Of a stretch of DNA of 64,000 nucleotides, positions 1 through 46,504 are shown piece by piece. Location of the stretch: contig OZ220741.1 of assembly GCA_965116885.1 (NCBI GenBank), positions 774,881-838,880 of the forward strand, read 5' to 3'. Under the pieces are notes generated by a model. It saw only the letters and a list, made by a program, of their open reading frames with translations. It did no database searches and was not told the DNA's origin. The DNA comes from Candidatus Latescibacterota bacterium. GTDB taxonomy: Bacteria > Latescibacterota > UBA2968. A program made the translations under genes and the position numbers. Position 1 is the first letter of the stretch. Each line of letters starts with the position of its first letter.

Positions 1-849
1 CTTGCCCAACTTGTGAAACGTACTCGCAACAACACCTTTCTTATCCACGCGCTCATCCAACCGTTCCTGCATCTCCTGTGCCGCCTTATTCGCAAAAGCC
101 AGCATAAGAATCTCATCGGGCCGTGCCTGCCCGCTCTCAACCAAAAAACCCGCGCGCCCCACCATCGCACTCGTCTTGCCAGTACCCGCACCAGCCAGTA
201 CCAGATTATTATCTTCATCTATCACACACGCATCGCGCTGGCTCTCGCTCAGAGGATTGCTCTCCACCCCATCAAAAAAGGTCGAAAACGCTTCTTTGAG
301 GCGCTTGACATACTGCGCGCGAAAATCTTCTACCTCTTGATCGCCCCAGTGCGCCACCTCCTGCACCAGCGTAAAATCAGCATGGCGCTTGCGATCCAAA
401 TACCCTACCGCTGGCACCTTGCGAAACTGATCGAGCATTTCCCGCGCCAGCTCTTTTATCTTCAACAAACGTGAACTGCGCAGATAACCTTCATCCAGCA
501 ATCTATTAATCTCCCCGGCACACCGCTTCACTTCTGACGCGAACTTTTGAGACTCCTCCAACCAATACCAATAATCCTGCAACCAGTCGAAAAACCCATC
601 CACCTCTGCCTTGCACAGCCCCTTCAATCGCTCCTCTCCGCGATCCGTCGGCAACACCAGCTCAAAAAACAGCTTCCCGCGATATAATACATCTTCTCGC
701 GTCAAATTTTCAGCGCATAAGGCAAAGCGTTTGCCCCCGGCCCTCTCCAAAGTCAGACCATCAGATGAAATTAAAATCGTTGCCGTCCTCGCGCCCAAAA
801 GACGCATTGCCCAATGCGGGGTAACACTTTTGTTTTTAAGTGTATCCAT
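1..849 (-). CDS. UvrD/Rep-family DNA helicase (helicase IV-like), N-terminal part; gene continues beyond window start
   Basis: Reverse-strand translation from ATG (complement of 847-849) gives ...LVLAGAGTGKTSAMVGRAGFLV...ILMLAFANKAAQEMQERL... with a Walker A motif (AGAGTGKT) and helicase IV-like N-terminal context; no stop codon before window edge. Confidence 0.6.
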   Translation of the reverse strand, partial: MDTLKNKSVTPHWAMRLLGARTATILISSDGLTLERAGGKRFALCAENLTREDVLYRGKLFFELVLPTDRGEERLKGLCKAEVDGFFDWLQDYWYWLEESQKFASEVKRCAGEINRLLDEGYLRSSRLLKIKELAREMLDQFRKVPAVGYLDRKRHADFTLVQEVAHWGDQEVEDFRAQYVKRLKEAFSTFFDGVESNPLSESQRDACVIDEDNNLVLAGAGTGKTSAMVGRAGFLVESGQARPDEILMLAFANKAAQEMQERLDERVDKKGVVASTFHKLGK

Positions 850-915
850 TCACCAATTCTCAAAAAAGAAAAGCCTCCTTGCTTCGGAGACTTTTCAAAA
901 AATAAATAAAACAGC

Positions 916-989
916 GGGCGACCACAGGGGGTCGCCCCTACAAATCGGATTCACAATATCACCGTAGGGGACGGCCCCTGTGCCGTCCC
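916..989. repeat. Two adjacent GC-rich 26-nt palindromic REP-like elements (GGGCGACCACAGGGGGTCGCCCCTAC and GTAGGGGACGGCCCCTGTGCCGTCCC) between clpP and helicase gene
   Basis: Perfect hairpin-forming palindromes; same family recurs at 52219-52244, 53646-53672, 61455-61480, 61499-61525, 61536-61561. Confidence 0.8.
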
Positions 990-1019
990 GCATGCGTAGC
1001 CCAACCAACCCCCAGCCCC

Positions 1020-1643
1020 TCACTCACCTATCTCATCAAACCCATTCACAACCCGACTGATCAACCCGTATTCCACAGCCTCATCGGGACTCATCCAATA
1101 GTCTCGATCCGTATCTTCCTCAATCTTTTCAAGTGGCTGACCGGTCTCATCGGCATACATCTCGTTAATCTTCTTCTTAATCTTCACGACCTCCTCAGCC
1201 GTGCGCCGCACATCTTCAGCCACCCCTTGAAACCGCATCGAAGGCTGATGAATCATAAGGCGCGAATTTGGCAAAGCCAGCCGATCTGCCTTATCTGCCG
1301 CCATCATAATCACCGTCGCTGCACTCGCCGACAGACCCGCACTGATAATTTTTACTCTGGGACGGATAAACCGGATCATATCGTAAATCGCAAACCCATC
1401 GTACACACTACCGCCGGGTGAATTAATAAAAATTTTAATCGGTTCTTCTGGATCTTCATGATCCAAAAACAGCAACTGAGCCGTCACCTTAGCCGTCAAC
1501 TTGTGATCCACGGGATCGGAAATCAAAATCGTACGCGCATCTATCAACCCCTTGTTCAAAATACCGTTCTTCGACGCGCTATCTTCCTCTTTCTCCTCAT
1601 CATCGAGGATCACATCGTCCTCAAAAATCATCCAGTCCTCCAA
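1020..1643 (-). CDS. clpP: ATP-dependent Clp protease proteolytic subunit ClpP
   Basis: 207 aa; ...IFINSPGGSVYDGFAIYDMIRFIRP...ISAGLSASAATVIMMAADK...LPNSRLMIHQP... matches ClpP serine protease fold with acidic N-terminal extension. Confidence 0.85.
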   Translation of the reverse strand: MEDWMIFEDDVILDDEEKEEDSASKNGILNKGLIDARTILISDPVDHKLTAKVTAQLLFLDHEDPEEPIKIFINSPGGSVYDGFAIYDMIRFIRPRVKIISAGLSASAATVIMMAADKADRLALPNSRLMIHQPSMRFQGVAEDVRRTAEEVVKIKKKINEMYADETGQPLEKIEEDTDRDYWMSPDEAVEYGLISRVVNGFDEIGE

Positions 1644-1720
1644 AAATAAAAATCAAAAAACCCGTTATGTTCAATGGCTCAATTTATCCCATATCCCCAT
1701 TTGAGTCAAGAGCCTTGCGG

Positions 1721-4700
1721 TTAATTTTTTTTCTCCAAACGCCTATCCGCCTTCACCAACTTCACCCCCACGCTCTTACCATCCTGACACGTAAACGCCA
1801 CAACCGTCTGATCCGCCTGAACCCTTGCGTCCACCAGATCATACGCACCATCCAAACGCCATATCCCTCGCACCGTCACCTCTACCTTCCGGGGCATACT
1901 CGCCTGATTGACAATTAGCGAACCATCCTGACGATGCGGCGTCTGAATCTCCCAACGCCACCCAAAATCCGGATCAGCAACCGAAAGCAATAACCCATCA
2001 CCCACTTCTCGGGACATTACCAAACTCGGCAAAGACACAGACACAATAGCTCCATCCGTCGGCCTCGCATCCTTATCGAACAGCGCATAACCCGTCGCCT
2101 TCATCCCCCGATGATGCACAATATGAGCCTTGTGATCTCGCTGCCAGACATCATACTCGGGTGCATTGGCAAACGCGCTTACCCTATCCGGCGACCTCTG
2201 AACCAACACGGCATATTCATAGAATCCATCTTGAGGCGCGCTACCGTGATCCAGATACGCCAATTCAAAAGTTCCTGTACCACCGCTATCCCTACCATAA
2301 TTTTTAGAAACTTGCTCCTGACGCTGCACCCTCAGGTCGCCCCCATCTGGAACCACATACCCATTACCCAACGAATCCATCACCCATACCCTCTGCCCCT
2401 TTATCCCCTCAAACATATATGGAATCGCATGCACACGCTCCCCATTCACCCCCGTAGAACGGTCCTCAGAGATAGCCGCCTGAAATAGCGGCGTCACCGT
2501 CGTATGACCACCATCATCATTCTCAATACCAGACCCCAGGCAAACCAGTACATCGTCAAAACAAAACACCGTCTTAACAGCTCGAAAACTCGTATTGAAT
2601 CTCGTATCGTGCAACTTCAAGGAGAACACACCATTTTGCCCTTTCAGATTCACCCCACCCACAAAAGTCTCATCCGAAAAATTGCGATCACGTCCCTCGT
2701 GTTTGAGCTGCTCATGACTCAAGCGGATCACCGTCGTACCCGGCCACATACTCCAATCCCATCCATCTCGCACAATCCCACTCGCCTCCCGGCCAACCGG
2801 ATCGCCACTCGCGTAAACCAGCATCGTCCCATAGCTCAAATAACGACCGAGCGGATTATTCCTCCCCGACGACTCGTAATCCCACACATATTTACCCCAC
2901 CCCTTCATACTCACCATCCAGTCCGCACGCCGATGAATGGACAACGCGCCATAAGGCAGCGTCCAGTGCCCCGAAGGTGGAGTAGCAGATGCATATCCCG
3001 CACTTGCAAAATCCGCCATCATCTGTATCGCACCCGGCGTGTGCAAATACATCAGCCGCACCGATACCCGCTCAAACAAATCTTCTATCAGCAACTGCGA
3101 CTTCGGTTTCCAAAGCTGCATAAACGCGCCCGACAGTTCTGCATCCACCGGAGCATAACTCAAAGCCACATACATATATGCCGGCAAAAGTTTGGTAGCC
3201 ACCGCTGTATTCCGCGGAAAACGACCATTAACAGCCATTGAAATATCATACGTATTCGCCATAATCCTGGACGTCAACAACGCCTGCTTCAAATTATCGC
3301 GCTTATCATCTCCAACCGCAAAAGGCGTATCGTGCAACAAATACACCAGCACAGAAGCCACATGAAAAGCATTTGGCGCATACCCACTCGCGTAAATCCC
3401 CCGATGGTGAAAACCCACAAAATCCGGCTTAATCGTATCCAACCACCCCGGCGCAATAGATAGTGCATTATTGAGCCACGCGATATAGCAACGCATATTC
3501 GCCACCTTCTCGGGCGAATCGTCCATCATCAAAATGCACAACAACCGATACATCGCCACCGAGCGTATAAAATCCGCATTCGCGCCCAGCACCTGCGGAC
3601 CCTCATACAACTCGCCAAACATACTGAACCATTTCAGCGTTGCCAACTCTCGTTCCAGCCGCTCCGTATCTTTCAGAATATCCCGCATCAAATACACCGC
3701 ATGGGCATAGCCAGCAACCCGCAAAAACTCGTGATGCATCGCCCCAACACCACTGCCATCTGCCCAACCCTGATCGTGCAAATAGTCGAAAACATCTATC
3801 ACCCGATCACGCGCCTCCTCATTGCCATTCAACCGATAATCCAACACCAGACGCAACAAAACCCCCTGAAAAACACTCTGAAAAAGAGGTTCATAGGGCG
3901 ACAACTCGGCAAACAGGGGCTTCCCCAAAATGCGATCACCCTCGCGTCGAATCTCGTAATCCGCCAGACTGCGATACCCGCGCCTTATATAGGCTTTAAG
4001 CTCATTGAGCCGAATCCTCACAGGCTCCCGCTCGTCATCCTTCACCCCATCACCCAGCACCCACGCCTCATATCGCCGGGCAATCGTCTCAAAAGCCTGT
4101 CTCTCATCATCAGTTATCTCTGTAGGAAGCGGACCTGGCAATGTGTTTTGACTCCACCGATATTCGCGACTCCTATCTGCCCTATTCGCATTGACAAAGG
4201 GAACCTGAGCATCTGGAGACCGCCTGGGGTGAATCCTCTCCACCAACTCCATCAAATCCAGATAAACAGCACCGCTATTCGATGCCCTAATTTCAAACGC
4301 CGTCACCCGTCCATTTCTCGCCCCCTCATAAGACCTGTTCCGCGCATCATCCCGCAAATGGATCCACATCGCCCGCCAGCCCGTAAAATTCAAGCCAAAC
4401 TCAAACTGATAACGCGGATTATTTGCCGACAACTCAGATTCCGTGCCAAACCGAAATGTCAGCACCTCATCGAGAGCCTCCTCGTTGTACACCCACGCCC
4501 GAAACCCGGTCAGTGCCTTATTGCGTCCCGGCGCGGGATCCGTGAACAAAAGTCGCCCGTTATTCTGCCAGGTCCATTTGAGAGATTGTTGCCCCCCTTT
4601 ATAACGCCTCGCTGAAAGCGACACCTCGCTACCTGCATCCACCTGATAGCTCTCGCCCATAGCCTCAAAATCATAGCGCCAGGACACATCCTGCGCCATC

Positions 4701-4753
4701 GCCGCACTGGCCAAGCCAAGAGCGAAAATAACAATACAGCATTTCAAATTCAT
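1721..4753 (-). CDS. Large secreted protein, probable polysaccharide lyase (heparinase II/III-like / alpha-alpha toroid plus beta-sandwich architecture); function inferred
   Basis: About 1010 aa ORF; start chosen at MNLKCCIVIFALGLASAAMA (cleavable signal peptide) rather than upstream ATG at 4816; size and composition resemble heparinase II/III-type lyases; sits next to sulfatase block. Confidence 0.35.
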   Translation of the reverse strand: MNLKCCIVIFALGLASAAMAQDVSWRYDFEAMGESYQVDAGSEVSLSARRYKGGQQSLKWTWQNNGRLLFTDPAPGRNKALTGFRAWVYNEEALDEVLTFRFGTESELSANNPRYQFEFGLNFTGWRAMWIHLRDDARNRSYEGARNGRVTAFEIRASNSGAVYLDLMELVERIHPRRSPDAQVPFVNANRADRSREYRWSQNTLPGPLPTEITDDERQAFETIARRYEAWVLGDGVKDDEREPVRIRLNELKAYIRRGYRSLADYEIRREGDRILGKPLFAELSPYEPLFQSVFQGVLLRLVLDYRLNGNEEARDRVIDVFDYLHDQGWADGSGVGAMHHEFLRVAGYAHAVYLMRDILKDTERLERELATLKWFSMFGELYEGPQVLGANADFIRSVAMYRLLCILMMDDSPEKVANMRCYIAWLNNALSIAPGWLDTIKPDFVGFHHRGIYASGYAPNAFHVASVLVYLLHDTPFAVGDDKRDNLKQALLTSRIMANTYDISMAVNGRFPRNTAVATKLLPAYMYVALSYAPVDAELSGAFMQLWKPKSQLLIEDLFERVSVRLMYLHTPGAIQMMADFASAGYASATPPSGHWTLPYGALSIHRRADWMVSMKGWGKYVWDYESSGRNNPLGRYLSYGTMLVYASGDPVGREASGIVRDGWDWSMWPGTTVIRLSHEQLKHEGRDRNFSDETFVGGVNLKGQNGVFSLKLHDTRFNTSFRAVKTVFCFDDVLVCLGSGIENDDGGHTTVTPLFQAAISEDRSTGVNGERVHAIPYMFEGIKGQRVWVMDSLGNGYVVPDGGDLRVQRQEQVSKNYGRDSGGTGTFELAYLDHGSAPQDGFYEYAVLVQRSPDRVSAFANAPEYDVWQRDHKAHIVHHRGMKATGYALFDKDARPTDGAIVSVSLPSLVMSREVGDGLLLSVADPDFGWRWEIQTPHRQDGSLIVNQASMPRKVEVTVRGIWRLDGAYDLVDARVQADQTVVAFTCQDGKSVGVKLVKADRRLEKKN

Positions 4754-4827
4754 ACTCAGACCTCTAATACTATTTGGGACTGAATCGCGGCTGAAGCATG
4801 CCGCGATGACAACCAAAATCTTCTGAA

Positions 4828-6093
4828 TTACTGGCCTAATACCGGTGCATCTTCTGGCCTGGGAATATTCACAAAATAGGCAAAAACGGCAACTATCAAC
4901 ACTGCTGGTGCCAGCGCGTAAAACGCGGGCGCATAAGACCCCGCAGAACTAAAAACAGACTCAATAAACCACGGACCTGTTGCAGAAGCCAAAACCGCAA
5001 ACACCTGTGCCGCACCCTGAATTTTTCCCAAATGAAGACGGCCAAAAATATCTGCCCACGCCGTAAAAAAAATCACCGAAACCACACCCCCGGAAAACCC
5101 CAGCAATCCCGCATGTGTCAGCGCTTGCCCCGGTGTTTTAAGCTGCGGAAACAAAAGCAAATAAAGACCAACCGCCAGCATCGCAACCGTCATCAGCCTG
5201 CCCAAAGACCATCGGCGCGCCGCCCACCCCGCTGTAAAATTCCCCAACAAACCCGTCGCCATAAACGCCGCCATCGCGTATTGAAACACCGTCTCATCAA
5301 ACCCCAACTCCCCCAATATAGACTGATTGAACAGCATCACACCCGCAATAACCAGATTGTAGAGCGCACTCCCAATAGCAAACACATAAAAAGCCGGTGT
5401 CATCAACGCCTGTACAAGCGTAAACCCAATCACCGGCTCCTGCGGCTCATCATCTTTCACAACCTCGGTATCCAGCCCAACTGCCTCTGGATCTCGACGA
5501 ACAAATAGCAGACACAAACCAGATAGAATCATCAAAATCCACCCCAGCCCCGACCACATAACCCGCCAACCCTGCGTGAGCACAACATCACCAGCAACAA
5601 CAATCGCAACCGCAAAACCCAGACTCATAAGCACGGCGAAAATACCCATCGCAAAGCTCAACCGCCGCACAAACCACTTGCCAACCATCGTCAAACTCAC
5701 CACAGACAGCGCGCTTTGCCCCACACCCCGCATCAAAACCAGCAACAAAAGCAAAAAACCAGCACCTGTCATCTGGCTAAACCCCAAAACCACCAGACTC
5801 AGAACAAATAGCACCGCCGTCACAACAGCGCGAACCCCAAAGCGATCAATAGTTACACCGCAGACCAAATTGAACAACGCTCCCAAAATAGTCGCCCAGA
5901 AATTCATCCCGGCAAAATCGAGCCGAGAAATACCCAGATCCGCGATCAAAGGCTCTGTAATCAAACCAATACCAACACTTCTGCCCGGCAGCGTAGCCAC
6001 CATCGCAACCGCCGCAAAAACCAAAACCACCCAACCGTAATAAAACAGCATACGCGCGGGTAGCGCATTGTCAAAATTATTTTTTAAAATCAA
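4828..6093 (-). CDS. MFS (major facilitator superfamily) transporter
   Basis: 421 aa, about 12 predicted hydrophobic helices, motif ...GVTIDRFGVRAVV... between TM2 and TM3 typical of MFS. Confidence 0.8.
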   Translation of the reverse strand: MILKNNFDNALPARMLFYYGWVVLVFAAVAMVATLPGRSVGIGLITEPLIADLGISRLDFAGMNFWATILGALFNLVCGVTIDRFGVRAVVTAVLFVLSLVVLGFSQMTGAGFLLLLLVLMRGVGQSALSVVSLTMVGKWFVRRLSFAMGIFAVLMSLGFAVAIVVAGDVVLTQGWRVMWSGLGWILMILSGLCLLFVRRDPEAVGLDTEVVKDDEPQEPVIGFTLVQALMTPAFYVFAIGSALYNLVIAGVMLFNQSILGELGFDETVFQYAMAAFMATGLLGNFTAGWAARRWSLGRLMTVAMLAVGLYLLLFPQLKTPGQALTHAGLLGFSGGVVSVIFFTAWADIFGRLHLGKIQGAAQVFAVLASATGPWFIESVFSSAGSYAPAFYALAPAVLIVAVFAYFVNIPRPEDAPVLGQ

Positions 6094-6134
6094 TTTTCTA
6101 CTCTGTTAGAATGGGCGCTGAACATATAGTTAAA

Positions 6135-6168
6135 AAGCTCCAACAAGATGAACTGCTTGTTGGAGCTT
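6135..6168 (-). terminator. Rho-independent terminator-like hairpin for the minus-strand AT-rich operon (13-bp perfect stem AAGCTCCAACAAG / CTTGTTGGAGCTT, 8-nt loop) followed on minus strand by TTTTAACTAT
   Basis: Perfect inverted repeat 6135-6147 / 6156-6168 immediately downstream (minus strand) of stop at 6187. Confidence 0.6.
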
Positions 6169-6186
6169 TGCAAATTAAAAAATGGG

Positions 6187-6750
6187 TTAATCCGGTAAAC
6201 CAATTCGACCCCTAAAATTGTAAAACCTTTGCATCAGATGCTGAACATAAATTGGTGGTACAACTGCAATCCTATCTATACCGCCCTCTTCAATTGCACG
6301 ATAAATATTTAAAGTTGCAATACCAAAGACATTTTTGAAATCCATATACAAATCAGGTAGAGGTCGGACTTGATCACTATTTTCAATCGACGCTTCTTGA
6401 AGATGGTGATACCTTTCGTTTTGGTTACTCTTCACATTTCTAAACAAGCTCGAATTGAGCTGACTTCGCTGCCGAATATTTTCTTCCTCATAAACGTCAC
6501 AAAAAAAAATCTGAGCAAGCTCATTTTGTGGCTTTGGGGGGCCAGTAAATCGCGATACATAATCCCACTCTAAATCACAAGCCGGGTTCATCACCATTAC
6601 CAGATTATGTTCTATAGGATTAAATATTATTTCCAAATCTCGTGATGAAGCTTGAGCAGGTACATCTGCCACAAACTCATGTACACCATATAGTATCTCA
6701 CCCTGGATTAAGGCTCCAACTTCGGGGGAAGGTTCATATTTAAACGCCAC
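6187..6750 (-). CDS. Hypothetical protein (AT-rich island gene 3)
   Basis: 187 aa ORF, low GC, no recognisable motif; co-directional and tightly spaced with 6760-7326. Confidence 0.55.
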   Translation of the reverse strand: MAFKYEPSPEVGALIQGEILYGVHEFVADVPAQASSRDLEIIFNPIEHNLVMVMNPACDLEWDYVSRFTGPPKPQNELAQIFFCDVYEEENIRQRSQLNSSLFRNVKSNQNERYHHLQEASIENSDQVRPLPDLYMDFKNVFGIATLNIYRAIEEGGIDRIAVVPPIYVQHLMQRFYNFRGRIGLPD

Positions 6751-6759
6751 GTCACGTCC

Positions 6760-7326
6760 TCAACCGTCAATAATCAACTCTGGTCGAGGAATGGTTTTCC
6801 CGACTTTGGCTATTTTAGGTTGCGTCTCTTGCTCTTGGCTCTTCAACCGGAACCGGGCTGGCGGTGGTGGTTGTAAATGAAATTGAAGTATATCCGCCAA
6901 TGTTTCCAAAGCCTCTTCTAAGCCTTGAGATGGCAAACCCGATATGAGAAAATGACAAAAGAATCTCTGCGCGATCTCCCTGCTCTCGCCCTCCTGCTCA
7001 TTGTAAAAACTAATCTCTTGCCCCAAAGCACCCACGGTACCACTAAACCTCCAATATCCCTTTACATTTTCTATTTCATTCTGGTTCAAGAGCATATCTG
7101 AGCTTCGGGATGCGATCTCTCTACTCTCGCCCTCTTGCTCATTGTAAAAACTAATCTCTTGTCCTAAATCTCCCACAGTACCACTAAACTTCCAATATCC
7201 CTTTACATTTTCTATTTCATTCTGGTTCAAGGGCATATCTGAGCTTCGAGGAGAGAGTCCATCGGAAGAGGTCCCCCGCTGTGCGATTAAAGGATTTAAG
7301 AATTGAAGGAATTGCATCAAACTCAC
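6760..7326 (-). CDS. Hypothetical protein with internal 47-aa tandem duplication (AT-rich island gene 2); true start may be downstream because ORF overlaps upstream gene by 110 nt
   Basis: 188 aa; segment SSDM(P/L)LNQNEIENVKGYW(K/R)FSGTVG(D/A)LGQEISFYNEQEGESREIA occurs twice. Confidence 0.5.
   Translation of the reverse strand: MSLMQFLQFLNPLIAQRGTSSDGLSPRSSDMPLNQNEIENVKGYWKFSGTVGDLGQEISFYNEQEGESREIASRSSDMLLNQNEIENVKGYWRFSGTVGALGQEISFYNEQEGESREIAQRFFCHFLISGLPSQGLEEALETLADILQFHLQPPPPARFRLKSQEQETQPKIAKVGKTIPRPELIIDG
6971..7252. repeat. 141-bp direct tandem duplication (2 copies, about 92% identical) inside CDS 6760-7326
   Basis: Copy 1 6971-7111, copy 2 7112-7252; in-frame (47 codons). Confidence 0.85.
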
Positions 7327-7996
7327 TCCTTTCTTCGGTATAACAGTCTGTATCTATCAAATACTGCTCTTGATTATTTTTATAACTTAGACCATGTCGA
7401 AGCCTGACCTTCGATAGTCCTTTGATATCAACAATATCGAATTCTGCCTCAGAAATGATACGGGACGGTGCAGTCTGAAGGGTTGTATCGCCAAGCAACC
7501 CAATGAGAGCCGGATTCAATAATTCTGACCACGCTATACCATCTAAACCGATTTTTTCTCGCTCAATTATATCAATATACCTGAGTCCGATTCTGGTGTA
7601 AAAATTGGGTTTATACTCTTCGTCCAATGCCTCAGCAACCAGATTCATCTCCTGACTGAAATTCTCCCAACTCTTGTAGCCATTGTCCGTGAGAGCGATA
7701 AAGCCCTGAGTCAGATTGACATATTTTTTTTTATTTTCAGATGCAAACTTATGATTAGGCCCTTCGGGAGTTTTAAGAGAACCTATATTCGAAAGTTGTT
7801 CTACTATCCTGGAGAATTCCTCTGGAAGATATTGATTCTCTCCCTCATAATAGGGATATTGAGACCTTATTCGATCTTGGAAATTAGACGGCGGTTCACT
7901 TGCAATTTTCAAAATTTCAGGAAATCGCAACTGACAAATAACCCTCTGCAATGGGTTTTTTGCGAATATTATTCTGTCAGATTTGGGAAAGGCCAT
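7217..7996 (-). CDS. Hypothetical protein, resembles conserved uncharacterised family (possibly TIGR04255-like) (AT-rich island gene 1)
   Basis: 259 aa from MAFPKSDRIIFAKNPLQRVICQLRFPEILKI...; about 42% GC versus about 58% in flanking genes; family resemblance is from memory only. Confidence 0.5.
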   Translation of the reverse strand: MAFPKSDRIIFAKNPLQRVICQLRFPEILKIASEPPSNFQDRIRSQYPYYEGENQYLPEEFSRIVEQLSNIGSLKTPEGPNHKFASENKKKYVNLTQGFIALTDNGYKSWENFSQEMNLVAEALDEEYKPNFYTRIGLRYIDIIEREKIGLDGIAWSELLNPALIGLLGDTTLQTAPSRIISEAEFDIVDIKGLSKVRLRHGLSYKNNQEQYLIDTDCYTEERSEFDAIPSILKSFNRTAGDLFRWTLSSKLRYALEPE

Positions 7997-8060
7997 ATCA
8001 TAAATTGTTATTTTGATGAAACTCAAACTTTCACAGAATGAAATAGGCAAAACACTTTAC

Positions 8061-8085
8061 GTCAAGCACTTTTTGGACGCTTGAC
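8061..8085. promoter_or_regulatory. 7-bp perfect inverted repeat GTCAAGC-N11-GCTTGAC in the gap between the sugar isomerase gene and the AT-rich operon; candidate operator or weak terminator
   Basis: Seen in 8051-8103 intergenic spacer; contains TTGAC -35-like hexamers on minus strand. Confidence 0.25.
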
Positions 8086-8103
8086 CTATCAAATGGGTTT
8101 CTG

Positions 8104-8931
8104 CTATTTATATTCTACACACGCCTTGAGCTTTGCCAGACCCTCTTCAGCGACCACAACAGACCCTTTTGCCCAGTAACTCGGATTAAACAACTCCAGA
8201 GACAACATCCCCTCATACCCCGCATTCTCAAACCCCGCCACAATCTCTGCCCAGGGCGCCAAACCATCCCCTGGATAAACCCGATCCGCATCTGTTATGG
8301 TATCCCTGCCGGGCGAAGCTGGATAATCATTCACATGCACCAAACCCAACTTACCCGGACCCAGATGCTCCAGCCCGTGAAAATGTCCACTCCCCTTGTA
8401 CATGTGATACACATCCGCCAGAAGCACCGTATCTGGCCGCCCGCATTCAGCCGCTACAAACAAAGCTTCACCCAGCGTACCCAGAGTCTGCGCAATACCC
8501 CAAAACTCCAGCAGCGGTCTCGCCCGAAACCCGACAACCTCATCCATCAATTCCCCATAGCGACGCGCCACAGAAAACAAATCCACATCCCGGTCCCGGA
8601 TCCCAAAAGGCGGAGCCGCGACATACGTACAATCGAGCGCATCGGCCATCTCAAAACAGCGACGCGCTTCCTCAAGCCCCTTTGCCCGCTCCTCATCCTC
8701 TGGCACAGACCACTCAAAAAACGCGATCAAATTGACAATCTGAATCCCCCTATCCGCTGCCTTATCGCGTATCTCAGACAGCGAACCACCCCCTGCAACC
8801 CACGCATCAATTTCTGCCACCCACGGCTCAATCCCCTCATACCCCGCATCCGCCGCAATATCGATGGCATCGACCACAGAAACGCCCTCATTGCGAATCG
8901 TGCTGGTATTCAAACAATACGAAAAACCCAT
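8104..8931 (-). CDS. Sugar phosphate isomerase/epimerase (xylose isomerase-like TIM barrel)
   Basis: Start MGFSYCLNTSTI with GAGGAG RBS (8941-8946, minus strand); ...GYEGIEPW...HVNDYP... pattern typical of AP endonuclease 2/xylose isomerase-like TIM barrels. Confidence 0.7.
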   Translation of the reverse strand: MGFSYCLNTSTIRNEGVSVVDAIDIAADAGYEGIEPWVAEIDAWVAGGGSLSEIRDKAADRGIQIVNLIAFFEWSVPEDEERAKGLEEARRCFEMADALDCTYVAAPPFGIRDRDVDLFSVARRYGELMDEVVGFRARPLLEFWGIAQTLGTLGEALFVAAECGRPDTVLLADVYHMYKGSGHFHGLEHLGPGKLGLVHVNDYPASPGRDTITDADRVYPGDGLAPWAEIVAGFENAGYEGMLSLELFNPSYWAKGSVVVAEEGLAKLKACVEYK

Positions 8932-9043
8932 GTTTATTCTCCTCACACAAAGACACGAAGGGATAAAAAACGACCCGTTTTACCCCGCCCGCTCCGTCTA
9001 TTCATCTGCGTCTATCTGCGTCATCTGCGGATACTTCTGTTTC

Positions 9044-10432
9044 CTATATACTCGGCAAAGGTGCCGTATCACCCGTCTCGTGCTGCCACAGGCGAATCGC
9101 CGCCGCCATACTGCGAACGCGATCCCGGTGCTCGGGCGCATCGAACAAATTATTCTCCTCAAAAGGATCGGTATTCAAATCGAACAACTCGCACTGATCG
9201 CCCGCACACAAATTCAACTTCCACCGGTCGCCCGTCACAACACAGCGCCACGGCAGCGTCGCCACCAAATTGATATCGGGAGTTCCCAAATTGCGGTCGC
9301 CAATCCCATTCCACTCCATAAACGCCATGTGCGCCTTCAAATCGCGGTCGCCCGTCAAAGCACCCGCCACACTCTCACCCTGACACTGATCTGGAATCGG
9401 TACCCCCGCCAGATCCAAAAGCGTCGGAACCAGATCCGCGTGACCAAACACCCCATCCACCCGCGTCTGCTCCGCATTCAACCACGGCACATGCATCAAA
9501 AACGGAACCCGCGCCGACTCTTCGTAAAACGCCCGCTTCTCCCACATGCGGTGATCGCCCGCCATCTCGCCGTGATCGCTCGTAAACACAAAAATCGTAT
9601 TCTCCATCTGACCCGTCTCATCCAGCGCCTGCACCATCTGACCAATGGCATCATCCACAATTTTCACATTGCCCAAATACTGCGCCCGCAACTTTCGCCA
9701 ATTCTCATCCCGCGTCATATCTTCTGCCACAACCCGCGCATCCGTGGTATTGCGATAAAAATCCGAACGCACGCGGTTAAACAGCGAATGCCCCTCTGGA
9801 TGCTTCAAAAACGTCGGTCCCACCGGAATCTCCTCCGGATCGTACAACCCGTCATAAGGTCCCCGATAAGGCGGATGCGGCTCAAACGTACTGGCAACGA
9901 GCAGCCATGGCCGCCCCGTATGCTCGCGAATAAACCGCTCGGACTCCGCGCCCACATAAGCCCCAATCTGCGCGGAAGCCGGCATCTCCGCACGTTGCTG
10001 GGGCGTAAACCTGTTGGGCACATCCGGCGCAAAGCCCTGATCCACCAACCACTGGTGGTACCCACACCCATCCGCAATACTACACCACTCGTCAAACCCG
10101 TGCTGACAGTTGCCATCATCTCCCAGATGCCACTTGCCCACATACCCCTTGCGGTACGTATCGGGCATCATCTCCGCGATGGACAACGTCTCCTCCCTCA
10201 TCGGAATCCCATTGACCACACACCCATGCGAATGCGGATAAAGCCCGGTAATCAACGACCCCCGCGCCGGCGTACAAACCGCCTGCGTCACATAGGCATT
10301 CTCAAAAACAAAACTCCGCGCAGCCAGCGCGTCATGATGCGGCGACTGAATCCACTCATTGCCATAACACGCCATCGTATCCGTGCGCTGCTGATCTGTG
10401 ATAATAACTACTATATTTGGTTGACGCGACAT
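9044..10432 (-). CDS. Sulfatase (S1 family, formylglycine-dependent)
   Basis: 462 aa; N-terminal IVVIITDQQR and C-T-P-A-R-G-S-L-I-T-G formylglycine motif. Confidence 0.9.
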   Translation of the reverse strand: MSRQPNIVVIITDQQRTDTMACYGNEWIQSPHHDALAARSFVFENAYVTQAVCTPARGSLITGLYPHSHGCVVNGIPMREETLSIAEMMPDTYRKGYVGKWHLGDDGNCQHGFDEWCSIADGCGYHQWLVDQGFAPDVPNRFTPQQRAEMPASAQIGAYVGAESERFIREHTGRPWLLVASTFEPHPPYRGPYDGLYDPEEIPVGPTFLKHPEGHSLFNRVRSDFYRNTTDARVVAEDMTRDENWRKLRAQYLGNVKIVDDAIGQMVQALDETGQMENTIFVFTSDHGEMAGDHRMWEKRAFYEESARVPFLMHVPWLNAEQTRVDGVFGHADLVPTLLDLAGVPIPDQCQGESVAGALTGDRDLKAHMAFMEWNGIGDRNLGTPDINLVATLPWRCVVTGDRWKLNLCAGDQCELFDLNTDPFEENNLFDAPEHRDRVRSMAAAIRLWQHETGDTAPLPSI

Positions 10433-10434
10433 TG

Positions 10435-11772
10435 CTATCTCTCCTGAATTTTAAAATGCCTACCTTCTTTCGCTGCTTGCCATTGGTCTTCTGTATCGAT
10501 CTCCACGCCGGGATCGCCCTGTTGATTCATCCAGCAGTCCAGTTCGGCAGACAGGCGTTTCTTCGTCTCTGCGTGCGCGGGATCATCGACCAAATTATTC
10601 AACTCACAGGGATCCTCATCCATGCGATACAACTGCTCAGGGGGACGGCGCATGTATCGATCCACCAAAAACCGCGTATGCTCATTAAACGTCGTATCAA
10701 AAACCCATGTCGGCCAGTACTGGTGCCATCTAAACTGCCCCATCAGATGCTTCTCAATATAGATCGCCTCGGGCGTCAAATTGCGAATATAGTGATACGT
10801 ACCATCCGTCACCGCGCGGATCGGATAGGGCGGACCCTCGGGAATATTATTATGCATAAAATACGCGAACTCTCGATGTGCATCTGCCTCGCCCAAAAGC
10901 ACAGACATAAAACTCGACCCATCAAAATCAATCGCATCGGGATCGCCGCCCGCAGCCTCAATCAGCGTTGGTGCGACATCTTCATACTGAATAACCGCAT
11001 CGGTATATCCCGGCTTCACCACGCCGGGCCAGCGCACGATAAAACCCGTATGAACACCCGTATTCCAATTCGTCCACTTGCACCCGGGAAACTGCGACCC
11101 CTGCTCAGACGTAAAAATCACCAGCGTATTATCCGCCTGCCCGGACTCATCCAGCACCGATAGAATCTCACCCACCTCCTGATCCAGCACCTCGATCTCC
11201 GCCAAATACTTGGCATAATCACTCCGCGTCTCCTCTGTATCCGCCAGATACGGAGGCAACTTCAACGCATCCAGATCAAAATGCTCGGGATTGCCCAGCG
11301 TCCACGGCGCGTGCGGCTCAAAAAGACCTGCCACAAGACAAAAAGGCGCATCCCGATCTTGCTCCACAAACGCGCGAATACCCTCAACGCCAAACTCGGG
11401 ATCGGGATGTGTGCATCCCCCCTCAATACCCGGCACATATTCAAAAGGAAAACTCTTATTGGGACCCACATGCTTCTTGCCACACAGCCCCACGCGATAT
11501 CCCAGATCCCCCAGAAAATGCGGAAGACTCCTCGTCCCCGGACGCGCAGCAGAATGATTCCAGCACGAACCATTGCGCGCCGGGTACAACCCCGTATAAA
11601 GTGCCGTACGGCACGGATTGCACATCGCCATAGGCAAATACGCCCGATTAAAAACCAGACCATCCCGCGCCAACCCGTCAATATTCGGCGTATCCACATT
11701 CTGCCCACCGTAAAGCGACAAATCGAGATACGTCGCATCATCTGCAATCACGATCAAAATATTCGGTCCCAT
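10435..11772 (-). CDS. Sulfatase (S1 family)
   Basis: 445 aa; ILIVIADD... and C-N-P-C-R-T-A-L-Y-T-G motif. Confidence 0.9.
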   Translation of the reverse strand: MGPNILIVIADDATYLDLSLYGGQNVDTPNIDGLARDGLVFNRAYLPMAMCNPCRTALYTGLYPARNGSCWNHSAARPGTRSLPHFLGDLGYRVGLCGKKHVGPNKSFPFEYVPGIEGGCTHPDPEFGVEGIRAFVEQDRDAPFCLVAGLFEPHAPWTLGNPEHFDLDALKLPPYLADTEETRSDYAKYLAEIEVLDQEVGEILSVLDESGQADNTLVIFTSEQGSQFPGCKWTNWNTGVHTGFIVRWPGVVKPGYTDAVIQYEDVAPTLIEAAGGDPDAIDFDGSSFMSVLLGEADAHREFAYFMHNNIPEGPPYPIRAVTDGTYHYIRNLTPEAIYIEKHLMGQFRWHQYWPTWVFDTTFNEHTRFLVDRYMRRPPEQLYRMDEDPCELNNLVDDPAHAETKKRLSAELDCWMNQQGDPGVEIDTEDQWQAAKEGRHFKIQER

Positions 11773-13211
11773 AACCCCTCCTTTTTAAGTCCCAATCGCA
11801 CCAACAACTCTGACGGCGCATCAATAGCGCGCAATTTCTCAACCATCAAATTTTGCATACGAGCCAGCGCATCGGATTCACTATCGGCGAGATCATTCTC
11901 CTGATCGGGATCCGAAGGCATGTGATACAACCGCGTCTTGTGCTTCTCGGGATGTCGCGCAGGCGTCTGCTTGCTCCGCAGCACATCGGCACCCCAATCA
12001 AACTGATTCCGATTCGCAATAATACTCGAATAAGCATACACCGGCGGATTGGACTCATCCACCCCCTGCAACAGCACATACTCCCCATCGGTAATATTGC
12101 ACGTCCCCGAAAACTGACCGTACAAAATCGCATCGCGCCCGGGCGCATCCTCATCCCTCAGAAACGGAATCAAACTCTGCCCGTGCAAATTCACCCCATC
12201 GGGCACCGCCAACCCCATGGCCTCCACCACAGTCGGAAAATAATCAACCGGCTGAACAAACTGCACGGGACGCGCACCGTGACCAAACTCGGGATGCCAC
12301 ACAATCATCGGAATCCGCGTAATCTCATTCCAGAGCACCCAATTCTTTCCCGTGCGCCCGTGATCGCCATTGTGCGTCCCGTGATCCGACGCGAGAATAA
12401 TCATCGTATTATCCATCAACCCCATATTCTCAACCTGATCCAGAAAATGCCCCACCCAGCGATCCACCATCGTCACCTCACCCGCATAAATCGCCTGCAC
12501 CCGCTTCAACTCCGCCGCCGTCAAATTGCCATCCACCCAATCGTACGGCGCCACCGGATACTCCATCACATCGTCTTCCGAATCATCGTACAACTTCACA
12601 TAGTGGCGTGGCGGATCCCATGGCTCGTGCGGATCAAAAGAATCAATCATCAAAAAGAACTCTTGATCCGCATTGTGCTGAAGCCATCGCGCCGCCCGTG
12701 AAAACAACTGCGGCGAAAACCAATCGCGTTCTTCCTTGCGGATATATTGCGCATTGCGAAAATGCGGTTGCTCGGGCCTGTTATGCGGCGGATAATCCAG
12801 CGTCCGATTCTCAAAAACAATATCCGAATCCGTCACATACCGGTCCCGCTCCTGCCCGCGCACAAAATCAAATCCCGAAAACGGACGCCAGTACCCACTG
12901 CCCGGATTGCTCGTCCAGTGGTGATACACATCCGTAAAAAAGTAGGACACCTTACCCGCCTCATGCACCGTCCCACCCAGCGTCACATCATCCGGCTCTA
13001 TACCGCCCCACCCCCGCCACGGAAACTCGTATCGCCCCGTCGCAATATCCCGGCGACACGGCAGCGTAGGATACGAAGCCAAATACGCATTCTCAAAAAC
13101 CGCGCCCCGCTCGGCAAAACGATCTATATTCGGCGTGTGAATCCGAGAATTGTCATAACACCCCACATGATCTCGACGCCAGGTATCCAGCACAATCAGA
13201 ATGACATTCAT
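11754..13211 (-). CDS. Sulfatase-family (alkaline phosphatase superfamily) protein with non-canonical active site: Thr replaces the formylglycine Cys (T-L-P-C-R-R-D-I-A-T-G)
   Basis: 485 aa; VILIVLDTWRRDH...; aligned on the conserved TG, the position of FGly-Cys is Thr and a Cys sits at +3. Confidence 0.75.
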   Translation of the reverse strand: MNVILIVLDTWRRDHVGCYDNSRIHTPNIDRFAERGAVFENAYLASYPTLPCRRDIATGRYEFPWRGWGGIEPDDVTLGGTVHEAGKVSYFFTDVYHHWTSNPGSGYWRPFSGFDFVRGQERDRYVTDSDIVFENRTLDYPPHNRPEQPHFRNAQYIRKEERDWFSPQLFSRAARWLQHNADQEFFLMIDSFDPHEPWDPPRHYVKLYDDSEDDVMEYPVAPYDWVDGNLTAAELKRVQAIYAGEVTMVDRWVGHFLDQVENMGLMDNTMIILASDHGTHNGDHGRTGKNWVLWNEITRIPMIVWHPEFGHGARPVQFVQPVDYFPTVVEAMGLAVPDGVNLHGQSLIPFLRDEDAPGRDAILYGQFSGTCNITDGEYVLLQGVDESNPPVYAYSSIIANRNQFDWGADVLRSKQTPARHPEKHKTRLYHMPSDPDQENDLADSESDALARMQNLMVEKLRAIDAPSELLVRLGLKKEGLWDRIF

Positions 13212-13221
13212 AAAAAACTCC

Positions 13222-13884
13222 TCATGTTAAAACTTCTTCTACCCTCACCCGCAGATCCGCCACAGAATCACCCGCGGCATTGAGCACCACAGGACCATCA
13301 TAACCATTCGCCTTGAGCGCGCGGACCACATCCACATCATCCTCCCCAATCGTCACCATCCCGATACGTTCCACATACTTATCCACAATCCCAACAGCGT
13401 TATCAACATCCATCGCATTGAGCCAGACATGCGCGCGCTCGGGCAAATCGGGCATCAAAGCGTCAAAATCCGCCGCACTTTCCAAACACGTATCCACCCC
13501 ATTCCCGATATTCAGCGTCACATCGGGAATATTCTCAAGCAACGCATGCACACCCCTCACCAGAGCCTCACGCGCCTCGCGGGAACGCGCACCACAGAGA
13601 AAATTGGCACACCGCAAGCGGAGTGCCCGCGCCAGATGAACATCCCACTCAACCTGCCGCAAATTGGAACCCGGATCATCGCGCACATGTAACCCCATCA
13701 ACGCCACCCCCGCATCATCGAAATAATCGCGAATCATCCTCACCGAAGCATCTGGATGAAAAGGCGAACTCGCCGTAAACGCACAATGCAACACCATAGC
13801 ATCAAAACCCGCTGCCTTCGCAATCTTCAAGGCAGCGGGCAACACAGCTTTTGGACACATAACAGGATCAAAACACAAACGCAA
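13222..13884 (-). CDS. Sugar phosphate isomerase/epimerase-like TIM-barrel protein (small)
   Basis: 220 aa; hydrophobic beta/alpha pattern similar to 8104-8931 family; weak. Confidence 0.5.
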   Translation of the reverse strand: MRLCFDPVMCPKAVLPAALKIAKAAGFDAMVLHCAFTASSPFHPDASVRMIRDYFDDAGVALMGLHVRDDPGSNLRQVEWDVHLARALRLRCANFLCGARSREAREALVRGVHALLENIPDVTLNIGNGVDTCLESAADFDALMPDLPERAHVWLNAMDVDNAVGIVDKYVERIGMVTIGEDDVDVVRALKANGYDGPVVLNAAGDSVADLRVRVEEVLT

Positions 13885-13905
13885 AACAAACCTCCTTCCC
13901 TCGTC

Positions 13906-14685
13906 TCACATCCCCTCCCAATACGCCCACATATCATCCGGATCTTCAAACTTGAGATCATCCCAATTCGTCCACCGAAAACGCGTAATAATCGCCATGC
14001 GAATCTCATCGCTGCAATTCATACTCGCGCTGTGAATCAAATGACTGTGCCAGAGCATCGCGGATCCCGCCGGCCCAGAAATCTCTTCATAATCCTCTTC
14101 ATCCCAATCGAGAATCTCCAGCGGCCTCGTCGAACGCGGCTCCCCCTCGTAAATCGGCAACTGGTAAAACGCCTTACCCAGGCTCACCCGCGAATGGGTC
14201 TTAAAATAATCCGCCATGTGCTTATGTGTCCTCGGCCACACGCAGGTACCCCCACCCTGGGGCTTCACATCATTGAGATACAGCGTAATACCCACCGTCC
14301 AATTATTCACAACACCGCTGCCAAGCCCGTGGCCATCCATATGATTACCTCTGGGACCTACCCATTCACCACCCTGTGGAAACCGCAAATTCGCCGACGT
14401 AATTGGCGGATGCAAAGGCGCCAGCCGCCCCTTACCAGCCAACTCCTCAACCATACTGTACAGCGGCGAATCGTAAATCAGCGCGTGAAATGCCGCGTGC
14501 CCATCCATCCCCTGAGACCCCTCTTTCCCAACCCACGAAGAAGGATCATTGCGATCCACAGGCAAATGATCCCAGATCACATCTCGCGCAGCTGCCATCT
14601 GCGCGGGCGTCACCACATCGCGTTTAATCACATAGCCCTTCTCTCGAAACACCTCTTTATCATCAACCGTCAAATACGCCATCAC
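13906..14685 (-). CDS. Phytanoyl-CoA dioxygenase (PhyH) family Fe(II)/2-oxoglutarate oxygenase
   Basis: 259 aa; H-M-D motif (NHMDGHG) and distal His (LIHSASM). Confidence 0.75.
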   Translation of the reverse strand: MMAYLTVDDKEVFREKGYVIKRDVVTPAQMAAARDVIWDHLPVDRNDPSSWVGKEGSQGMDGHAAFHALIYDSPLYSMVEELAGKGRLAPLHPPITSANLRFPQGGEWVGPRGNHMDGHGLGSGVVNNWTVGITLYLNDVKPQGGGTCVWPRTHKHMADYFKTHSRVSLGKAFYQLPIYEGEPRSTRPLEILDWDEEDYEEISGPAGSAMLWHSHLIHSASMNCSDEIRMAIITRFRWTNWDDLKFEDPDDMWAYWEGM

Positions 14686-46281: not shown

Positions 46282-46302
46282 AAACCCGCGAGAAAGGAAA
46301 AA

Positions 46303-46340
46303 AATGGCGTTCTTCTTTTGAAGGACGCCATTTTCTTTAT
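46303..46340 (+). terminator. Rho-independent terminator after FN3 gene (AATGGCGTTCT / AGGACGCCATT stem, then TTCTTTAT)
   Basis: 11-bp stem with 1 mismatch, 8-nt loop, T-rich tail. Confidence 0.6.
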
Positions 46341-46446
46341 AAATAGGCGTCAACTGTCGCCTTTTATGCGTCAGATATCAAAGTTAAGAATTTTCATAAT
46401 CTCTTTAACCAATTTATTATCAACATGTTATAAATCTCATCACCTC

Positions 46447-46462
46447 TGGCACAGATTGTGCA
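46447..46462 (+). promoter_or_regulatory. Candidate sigma-54 (-24/-12) promoter TGGCACAGATTGTGCA about 42 nt upstream of the sigma-54 activator gene
   Basis: GG and GC elements with correct spacing (consensus TGGCACG-N4-TTGCW, one mismatch in -12 box). Confidence 0.35.
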
Positions 46463-46504
46463 TGATGTCTCTTGTAAAACAACTCACTACATATTGGAGG
46501 TTTT

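Follow-up and report, generated by a model that had tools for sequence, protein, structure and literature searches.

The window analysed here is a 64-kb stretch of contig OZ220741.1 from a Candidatus Latescibacterota bacterium (positions 774,881 to 838,880), and positions 6094–8103 of it form an island that carries three co-oriented genes on the minus strand, g1, g2 and g3. The island has a GC content of 40.5% (0.405) vs. 0.522 for the remainder of the window, which is the lowest value among all 2-kb windows in the 64 kb (mean 0.518, sd 0.026; 4.3 sd below the mean). Its tetranucleotide distance to the rest is 0.50, where other 2-kb chunks average 0.244 ± 0.031 and do not exceed 0.329, and both GC skew and AT skew flatten within it. 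The original prediction had described an island of about 42% GC in a background of about 58–60%; sliding windows bear out the contrast in GC as well as in tetranucleotides, while the figures themselves have to be corrected to about 40 and 52%.

The leader and putative promoter region 5' of g1 (7997..8103, minus strand) was delimited from its sequence, fold and conservation. It contains the 7-bp inverted repeat that had been noticed earlier, GTCAAGC-N11-GCTTGAC at about 8061–8085, the 3' arm of which overlaps a TTGACG hexamer and which as RNA has a folding energy of -13.7 kcal/mol (z -3.1). Across the window and four related genomes the mean column identity of the leader is 89% and the repeat arms are invariant, and it is conceivable that the repeat serves as part of a promoter or as an operator. 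A 13-nt complementarity between the leader (8034–8046) and the g1/g2 junction (7071–7083 and 7212–7224) was examined as a possible long-range RNA switch and, lacking conservation in the genomes L006–L008, was set aside as chance. At the other end, between g3 and the MFS transporter gene, lies a terminator-like hairpin (6134..6169, minus strand), recognised from its arms, RNA fold and recurrence. The arms (6134–6147 and 6156–6169) pair perfectly over 14 bp around an 8-nt loop, so that the hairpin originally placed at 6135–6168 with a 13-bp stem is real and slightly longer than stated. Its folding energy is -20.6 kcal/mol (z -6.6), and a 37-nt self-complementary element recurs at the equivalent position in L006 and L008 (97 and 100% reverse-strand matches, respectively). 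A consensus terminator scan has no entry for 6134–6169 because the U-tract is short.

Three genes of the island

The first gene, g1 (7217..7996, minus strand), encodes a protein of 259 aa from an ATG at 7996; a TTG start would extend it to 277 aa (7217–8050). The resemblance to TIGR04255 in the original prediction was confirmed by an HMM match to the NCBIfam model with an E-value of 1.8e-42 and 145.9 bits over model positions 2–249 of 252, i.e., membership over the full model length relative to a curated cutoff of 30 bits. PGAP also gives the name TIGR04255 to the plasmid relatives of g1. No record of the family was found in the literature or in Pfam, and its name itself reads "sporadically distributed". 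The protein is the best conserved of the three, and invariant or near-invariant charged residues fall in predicted strands (C21-Q22-x-R24, R135-x-G137-x-R139-Y140-x-D142, and D215-x-D217 in full-protein numbering). Matches to the predicted fold are weak, with TM-scores of 0.26–0.42 that are about equal for the guanidino-kinase McsB, TBP, Med20, and AdoMetDC; the similarity lies at the level of general sheet topology. Two candidate relationships were discarded. In a PDB sequence search g1 matched the Sp100 bromodomain region locally (E 0.001–0.03); this was put down to chance, since the g1 model shows a strand-helix-strand arrangement for the segment concerned. Pfam HI1480 was reached by one member only at E 0.079, with 0 of 25 members past threshold.

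The second gene is shorter than the mechanical open reading frame of 188 aa (6760–7326) from which it was first described; the lengths of 259 and 187 aa given for its neighbours stand. Relatives conserve an ATG start located 20 nt ahead of the g1 stop codon; in the window it gives g2 as 6760..7236 on the minus strand (158 aa), or as 6760–7095 (111 aa) from the duplicated-copy ATG at 7095, the latter version fitting the 109–111 aa found in relatives. These 20 nt are shared with the end of g1, and 9 nt separate the end of g2 from g3. The gene encodes a small acidic protein, and an alignment of 34 homologues has a conserved P-x-x-G-L-x-E-A...F motif and an R-P together with an acidic C-terminus. 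The protein evolves faster than g1 and g3, yet its reading frame is kept: close relatives differ by indels whose lengths are divisible by 3, and codon-position variability is [25, 27, 40]. Fast evolution is typical of antitoxins. Neither sequence nor profile searches of Pfam and the PDB gave a match to g2, and it has no recognisable DNA-binding or antitoxin domain of the RHH, AbrB, HTH, or Phd/YefM type.

The two possible starts arise from a tandem duplication of 141 bp (6971..7248, minus strand) identified by TRF (period 141, 2.0 copies, 92% matches) and by alignment of the copies (137 nt, 93% identical). It takes in the final ~30 nt of g1 together with codons 1–47 of g2 and is in frame for g2. 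The duplication, which the original prediction does not mention, is absent from L002 and L006–L008 and hence specific to this genome. Classified by eye in the g2 frame, the 11 differences between the copies are 8 synonymous and 3 non-synonymous, a synonymous excess with P = 0.0012 given an assumed synonymous expectation of 25%.

The third gene, g3 (6187..6750, minus strand; 187 aa), starts with GTG, and its GAGGA Shine-Dalgarno sequence overlaps the g2 stop codon. It belongs to a family of ~1,300 clusters at 50% identity that carries no annotation, and for both g2 and g3 Pfam, NCBIfam, PADLOC, PHROGs, and the PDB provided none. Structure prediction, proposed earlier as a check on all three proteins, places g3 in the SH3-like barrel of the MazF/PemK/Kid/CcdB toxin fold; the alignment behind the prediction had 14 sequences, and of the five models two were poor (pLDDT 43 and 37). 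This predicted assignment has no counterpart in a sequence-level link to MazF, PemK, or CcdB: g3 and all 68 family members had no Pfam match, including to the PemK_toxin and CcdB models, a g3 profile found neither MazF nor CcdB in the PDB, and hhalign of the family against MazF, Kid, ChpBK, and EndoA was negative at a probability of 0.2% (with a small target alignment of 4 sequences). Conserved in the family are Q-G-E, C-D-L-x-x-D-x-x-x-R, E-R-Y-H, and D-F, among them an invariant Cys-Asp pair and several invariant arginines. In MazF the catalytic residues are an Arg in the beta1-beta2 loop and a Thr/Ser after beta3; in the g3 alignment this loop is variable. The g3 proteins are acidic (median pI 5.6), and many RNA-binding toxins differ from them in charge.

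Linkage, distribution and inheritance

The three genes form an obligate module. Among the 80 best genome loci found via g1, 58 have a g3 homologue 260–380 nt (about 320) downstream of g1 on the same strand with an open reading frame in the gap, and a further 3 have a distant g3-like protein of the form QGD...SQCCD. Conversely, g1 lies upstream of g3 in 30 of the 32 metagenome loci found via g3 with the 14-sequence g3 alignment as query. A g2 HMM matches 98 of the 99 loci that have both g1 and g3, and 65 of 66 when only loci outside its building set are counted. The ordered trio was found in at least 12 bacterial phyla, in a patchy manner and in a small fraction of 185,579 species; the co-occurrence in unrelated genomes that had been proposed as a check is thus seen, and the homologues are not scattered housekeeping singletons. 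At 59 of 59 loci the GC content of the trio is below that of its flanks, on average by 8.9 points, which fits a horizontally moving accessory cassette. No conserved fourth gene or uniform defence-island context was found, the 150 flanking open reading frames representing 140 Pfam families; the commonest of these is phage integrase, and transposases are also among the neighbours. A complete trio is present on one IMG/VR viral contig, the only such record for g3, which had 0 matches in 72,556 plasmids and 0 in 50,697 phage records. A defence-database search, also suggested beforehand, was run with PADLOC-DB v2.0.0 and gave no match for g1, g2, g3, or eight proteins of the variant cassettes described below.

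At the site in the window the island has been inherited stably. Four related Latescibacterota genomes carry it at the same site with 80–92% nucleotide identity and a divergence like that of the flanks, which points to an old acquisition and not a recent insertion, and no empty site was found, as 4 of 4 syntenic relatives have the island. Substitutions in g1 and g3 are biased towards third positions, indicating purifying selection in the clade. The island is therefore an old, stably inherited accessory module of this genome, and the horizontally acquired cassette originally proposed is supported, with the qualification that its insertion is not recent. Stable inheritance at one site under purifying selection could also be explained by a domesticated cellular function.

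Distant TIGR04255 genes also head other three-gene cassettes in which the second and third genes are different. In 8 genomes and 2 viral contigs TIGR04255 is followed by proteins denoted B and C (a third viral contig has C only), and on plasmids of A. baumannii, Vibrio, and Chroococcidiopsis it is followed by an Xre/cI helix-turn-helix protein, which is not a homologue of g2, and a protein of ~280 aa. A P2-like phage of Burkholderia has TIGR04255 followed by 175-aa and 236-aa proteins, located between the integrase and the portal gene Q and adjoining a HigB-like toxin/antidote pair. The cassette of Burkholderia phage vB_SBP21 lies at 6830–8860 of PV111789.1. The segment between gpA and gpQ is a defence hotspot of P2 (PMC9122126). 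Finally, a Rhizobium plasmid carries TIGR04255 with 288-aa and 218-aa proteins between a multiubiquitin/ThiF/DUF6527 cluster and an IS110 element. When read by eye, the third proteins of the Burkholderia phage and Rhizobium plasmid cassettes have a cysteine motif H...H...GLTC in common. Taken together, TIGR04255 cassettes are spread over 12 or more bacterial phyla, and conjugative plasmids and the gpA–gpQ hotspot of P2-like phages are among their locations. The occurrence of g1 relatives in this hotspot and on plasmids, near an integrase, an IS element, a HigB-like pair, and a ubiquitin-like system, agrees with a toxin or defence function.

Proposed function and alternative explanations

We favour the interpretation that the island is an old, horizontally acquired and self-contained tripartite toxin-antitoxin or abortive-infection module, with a probability of about 0.55. 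The three genes would form one transcription unit that runs from the conserved leader to the hairpin, and they are translationally coupled, with the g2 ATG falling within g1, 20 nt from its end, and the g3 Shine-Dalgarno sequence lying over the g2 stop. g3 would be the effector, a barrel of the MazF/CcdB fold that is most likely a sequence-specific endoribonuclease and less likely a CcdB-like protein poison. g2, being small, acidic, fast-evolving and directly upstream of g3, may be its cognate neutraliser or an adaptor, and g1 may act as a hub, i.e., a sensor or regulator that governs release of the effector. The toxicity of g3, its neutralisation by g2, the role of g1, and a phage-defence phenotype are each put forward from fold, gene order, and genomic context. 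The original guess at a toxin- or defence-type function is supported by the predicted fold of g3 and by the context of the g1 relatives, the function as such being deduced from these. The linkage of the trio, its accessory and mobile character, the interchangeable partners of TIGR04255, and the fast but frame-keeping evolution of g2 were counted in favour of the toxin-antitoxin interpretation. Near-absence of g3 from plasmid and phage records, the acidic character of g3, the lack of a sequence-level link between g3 and known toxins, the small alignment and the two poor models behind its predicted fold, the lack of a recognised domain in g2, the weak fold matches of g1, stable inheritance at one site, and the negative PADLOC result were counted against it.

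It is tempting to speculate further that TIGR04255 is a hub, as sensor or regulator, around which a large and hitherto unrecognised superfamily of three-gene conflict systems (for defence or addiction) is built with interchangeable downstream pairs. The island would be one member, and its effector would represent a new MazF/CcdB-fold branch that has a Cys/Asp/Arg active site of its own. This wider proposal is tentative, and we consider it somewhat short of even odds.

Two other explanations are both improbable, to a similar degree. The first is that the trio is a domesticated or ordinary cellular operon, e.g., for RNA processing or stress regulation, and that its low GC reflects an old foreign origin or constraints on codons or structure. 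The inheritance of the island at one site with flank-like divergence in four genomes, the third-position bias in g1 and g3, the absence of g3 from the plasmid and phage records, and the negative PADLOC result speak for such an operon. It is harder to reconcile with a patchy distribution in few of 185,579 species, a GC content always below that of the flanks, heterogeneous neighbours that include integrases and transposases, the swapping of the genes downstream of TIGR04255 between variants, the presence of g1 relatives in a phage defence hotspot, and the toxin-type predicted fold of g3. The second is that the system centres on an enzyme, so that g1 would be catalytic (guanidino-kinase/McsB-like or AdoMetDC-like), bind a nucleotide or small molecule, and modify g2, g3, or a target or make a signal, with g3 as a non-nuclease effector such as a CcdB-like poison or a binding adaptor. 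Although the many invariant or near-invariant charged residues in predicted strands of g1 speak for it, the TM-scores of g1 are low and are reached similarly by TBP, Med20, and AdoMetDC, no sequence-level match to kinase or decarboxylase families was obtained, and no nucleotide-binding motif was identified in g1.

The tandem repeat directly upstream of g3 would also be compatible with a type III system (ToxIN/AbiQ/CptIN-like) in which the g1–g3 interval, including the 141-bp repeat, is a repetitive RNA antitoxin, but this reading was rejected as very improbable, given that the repeat is confined to this genome, consists of two 141-nt copies that are in frame and differ mostly at synonymous sites, and that at 98 of 99 loci the interval holds a reading frame encoding a conserved amino-acid motif, with indels among close relatives in multiples of 3.

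Should the tripartite toxin-antitoxin interpretation be correct, TIGR04255 would gain a biological context as the invariant first gene of modular three-gene cassettes, the unannotated g3 family of ~1,300 clusters would be assigned to the MazF/CcdB toxin fold, and the trio would be a candidate for a new tripartite toxin-antitoxin or anti-phage system that current defence catalogues (PADLOC v2) do not detect. Homologues in culturable cyanobacteria (among them Chlorogloea sp. CCALA 695 and Oscillatoria sp. HE10JO), in Thioalkalivibrio, on an A. baumannii plasmid, and in Burkholderia phages offer a ready experimental handle.

Comparison with known systems

The trio has the generic layout of a type II toxin-antitoxin system, with small, adjacent, co-oriented and coupled genes and a patchy accessory distribution. 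As in MazEF, Kis-Kid, and CcdAB, the putative effector gene comes last, after a small, acidic, fast-evolving and translationally coupled gene, and the genes as a set are accessory and patchily distributed. Unlike in these systems, g3 is ~75 residues longer, has extra helices and shows no sequence-level membership; its conserved residues differ from the Arg/Thr motif of MazF; g2 is without an AbrB or ribbon-helix-helix antitoxin domain; and a larger, obligatory third partner, the TIGR04255 protein, heads the operon. Known type III systems such as ToxIN, AbiQ, and CptIN have, between promoter and toxin gene, a terminator and an array of short direct RNA repeats of ~34–36 nt, whereas the upstream element of the island is a conserved protein-coding gene with no short RNA repeat array.

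Tripartite toxin-antitoxin systems include TAC (toxin-antitoxin-chaperone), omega-epsilon-zeta, PaaR-PaaA-ParE, and HipBST. The trio resembles them in having three presumably co-transcribed genes, a toxin-like effector, a small middle protein, and a third component that is nearly always present. It differs in that, by any test run, g1 is neither a SecB-like chaperone as in TAC nor a DNA-binding repressor, and in that the best conserved of its components is g1, which turns up again ahead of unrelated gene pairs. To our knowledge, none of these systems is built on a conserved hub with swapped downstream pairs. A modular arrangement of the hub type is represented by Panacea, in which the antitoxin PanA is found with many toxin partners (PMC8832971). 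TIGR04255 has no relation to DUF4065/PanA that is detectable by sequence, and it is the downstream gene pair and not a single toxin that is swapped. What the island and its relatives share with Panacea is one conserved family, here TIGR04255, standing beside several unrelated partner families in the same operon layout.

Composition and gene structure of the island

The AT-rich island at 6094-8103 has a GC content of 40.5% against 52.2% across the remaining window, is the GC minimum among all 2-kb windows of the 64 kb (4.3 sd under the mean) and lies at a tetranucleotide distance of 0.50 from the remaining window, compared with 0.244 ± 0.031 (maximum 0.329) for other 2-kb chunks. The low-GC contrast of the original prediction is therefore real, but the background of 58-60% GC given with it is not, as about 52% was measured. 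The flanking genes are strongly strand-skewed and the skew flattens within the island. On the + strand the host genes at 1-16000 have an unusually strong GC skew of about -0.25 to -0.45 and an AT skew of up to +0.5, so that their coding (minus) strand is G- and T-rich, and across this profile both skews fall towards zero within the island. Only one further 500-bp stretch of the window, 46000-46750, falls below 44% GC; it is intergenic and not an island, and lies between the gene for a 1192-aa repeat-rich protein and a 449-aa ORF that is read, by its sequence motifs, as a sigma-54-type response regulator.

The first gene of the island, g1 (7217-7996, minus strand, 259 aa from ATG), matches the TIGR04255 model at E 1.8e-42 and 145.9 bits (cutoff 30), which bears out the resemblance first noted. 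The third, g3 (6187-6750, minus strand, 187 aa), starts at a GTG aligned to the Met of its homologues, and its Shine-Dalgarno sequence, GAGGA, overlaps the stop codon of the middle gene, g2. The minus-strand ORFs of 259, 188 and 187 aa are present as first described, that of 188 aa (6760-7326, minus strand) being a mechanical ORF. In relatives, however, translation of g2 begins at a conserved ATG lying 20 nt ahead of the g1 stop and its product is 109-111 aa, and the 188-aa ORF is therefore over-extended. A perfect hairpin with 14-bp arms (6134-6147 and 6156-6169; -20.6 kcal/mol, z -6.6) lies 3' of g3 and ends the unit, and the inverted repeat described upstream of g1 is likewise present, in a leader with a mean column identity of 89% across four related genomes. 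Positions 8034-8046 of this leader are perfectly complementary over 13 nt to the junction of g1 stop and g2 start (7071-7083 and 7212-7224), probably by chance because the match is only partly kept in one relative (L002) and lost in the other three (L006-L008).

A tandem duplication of 141 bp (6971-7248) is specific to the source genome among the related genomes compared, spans the g1 end and stop together with the first 47 codons of g2, and is in frame for g2. By-eye codon reading of the 11 differences between the copies in the g2 frame gave 8 synonymous and 3 non-synonymous changes (P = 0.0012, assuming a 25% synonymous expectation), which suggests that both copies are translated and that g2 is a 158-aa protein from 7236, the alternative product being 111 aa from 7095. 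These differences also suggest a g2 protein whose N-terminal segment is duplicated and still under selection.

Linkage, distribution and inheritance of the three genes

Scanning 185,579 species genomes with the g1 alignment gave at least 574 relatives. At 58 of the best 80 of these loci a g3 homologue follows on the same strand, 260-380 nt further downstream, and the gap is taken up by an ORF; 3 further loci encode a distantly g3-like protein in which the QGD...SQCCD motif pattern recurs. In the reverse direction, g1 was found at equal spacing in 30 of the 32 g3-found metagenome loci with room upstream. A g2 profile of 34 sequences matches 98 of 99 loci with g1 and g3 (65 of 66 outside profile building). 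The trio is an obligate module and co-occurs in unrelated genomes of many phyla; hosts among the matches listed include Chloroflexota, Acidobacteriota, Cyanobacteria, Planctomycetota, Nitrospirota, Actinomycetota, Gemmatimonadota, Armatimonadota, Myxococcota, Binatota, Pseudomonadota and Latescibacterota. The trio has a lower GC content than its flanks at 59 of 59 loci, by a mean of 8.9 points. No gene is common to these flanks (150 ORFs, 140 Pfam families), the commonest families being phage integrase (5), SRP54 (3) and DDE transposase, Fic and D12 methylase (2 each). The g3-type trio is rare on mobile elements, with one IMG/VR contig and no match in plasmid or phage records.

Each of the three proteins is acidic (pI about 5). 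The g2 protein is variable in its N-terminal part, carries a conserved helix motif, P-x-x-G-L-x-E-A-x-E-x-L...F, and ends in an R-P plus acidic C-terminus; it evolves faster than g1 and g3, and its indels keep the reading frame. Variable sites at the three codon positions number 25, 27 and 40 in g2, 48, 39 and 114 in g1, and 30, 22 and 73 in g3. At 50% identity (E <= 1e-3), the g3 family forms 1324 clusters in a library of 1.84 billion representatives, and nearly all its members are single-domain proteins of about 190 aa. Some homologues, such as L001 6001-6930 (P0008) and P0139, are about 310 aa long with a C-terminal extension of ~120 residues.

The nearest g1 relatives among the matches listed are from Latescibacterota MAGs (81-89% amino-acid identity), and a 100%-identical protein is encoded on a 5.56-Mb NCBI contig. 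In the four relatives (L002, L006, L007 and L008) the island is also AT-rich and occupies the same site, between an AP_endonuc_2 gene and an MFS gene, with a nucleotide identity of 79-92% compared to 80-95% in the flanks; no empty site was found in these genomes. From this shared site and flank-like divergence, the island is an old acquisition, vertically inherited within the clade. About 2.5 kb away is a variable, defence-like hotspot. Here a different AT-rich insert (GC 0.38-0.47) adjoins the first sulfatase gene in L002 (1-2282), L006 and L008 (both about 1-3600), upstream of the sulfatase matching 9044-10432 of the window; in L002 it encodes SEFIR/TIR_2, AHJR-like and PDDEXK_3 proteins. 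The window and L007 run straight into a second sulfatase at this site.

TIGR04255 with other gene pairs

Loci without g3 carry different gene pairs downstream of g1. In eight genomes (L033, L053, L057, L061, L070, L072, L076, L081) and two IMG/VR contigs (L144, L145) TIGR04255 is followed by a B protein (~180 aa; motifs E-W-I-F-x-D-Y-R-I-G-F and E-S-G-W-Y-L) and a C protein (~142 aa; S-I-N-W-E-D-D and Y-E-R...N-P-Y-H-G-N), and a third contig (L147) shows C only. Comparison by hhalign gave no relation of B and C to g2 and g3, and both families are unannotated, with no match in Pfam or PADLOC. On plasmids of A. baumannii, Vibrio furnissii and Chroococcidiopsis, the pair downstream of more distant TIGR04255 genes (25-27% identity) consists of an Xre/cI helix-turn-helix protein and a hypothetical protein of 273-305 aa; the N-terminal part of the A. 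baumannii middle gene (L135 4259-4828) has a near-threshold match to Pfam Tox-HDC (E 6.7e-4, 20.3 bits, cutoff 21).

On a conjugative Rhizobium plasmid the TIGR04255 cassette is flanked by a multiubiquitin/ThiF/DUF6527 cluster and an IS110 element. In phages of Burkholderia pseudomallei with a P2-like layout, the order is integrase, TIGR04255, 175-aa and 236-aa proteins, HigB-like toxin plus antidote, and portal gene Q; the gpA-gpQ interval of P2-like phages is a hotspot of anti-phage systems (PMC9122126). The third genes of Burkholderia phage vB_SBP21 (L133 5321-6031) and the Rhizobium plasmid (L134 5494-6150) have no match in Pfam or PADLOC. By eye they have in common an H-V-G...H-L-x-W-H...G-L-T-C-[SA]-T pattern, suggesting a cysteine-dependent enzyme.

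Proposed function and relation to known systems

The best-supported reading, to which we assign a probability of about 0.55, is a tripartite module of toxin-antitoxin or abortive-infection type. The analysis shows the linkage, order, coupling, composition and modularity of the genes and the predicted fold of g3. In this reading g3 would be an effector of MazF/CcdB fold, g2, translationally coupled to it, its neutraliser, and g1 a conserved hub with a sensory or regulatory role; toxicity, neutralisation, the trigger and any defence phenotype are inferred. A system centred on an enzyme, with g1 as the catalytic protein, is improbable, and so to the same degree is a domesticated cellular operon. 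A type III system with an RNA antitoxin is very improbable, as the g2 interval has coding evidence. It is also possible, if somewhat doubtful, that TIGR04255 is the defining family of a large superfamily of modular conflict systems with three genes that has gone unrecognised.

No cassette component was matched in a PADLOC v2 screen, or in Pfam and the searchable literature beyond the TIGR04255 label. The cassette behaves most like type II systems of the MazEF, Kis-Kid and CcdAB type and like tripartite toxin-antitoxin systems, although by sequence it is a member of none of them; its obligatory third partner recurs with unrelated downstream gene pairs.
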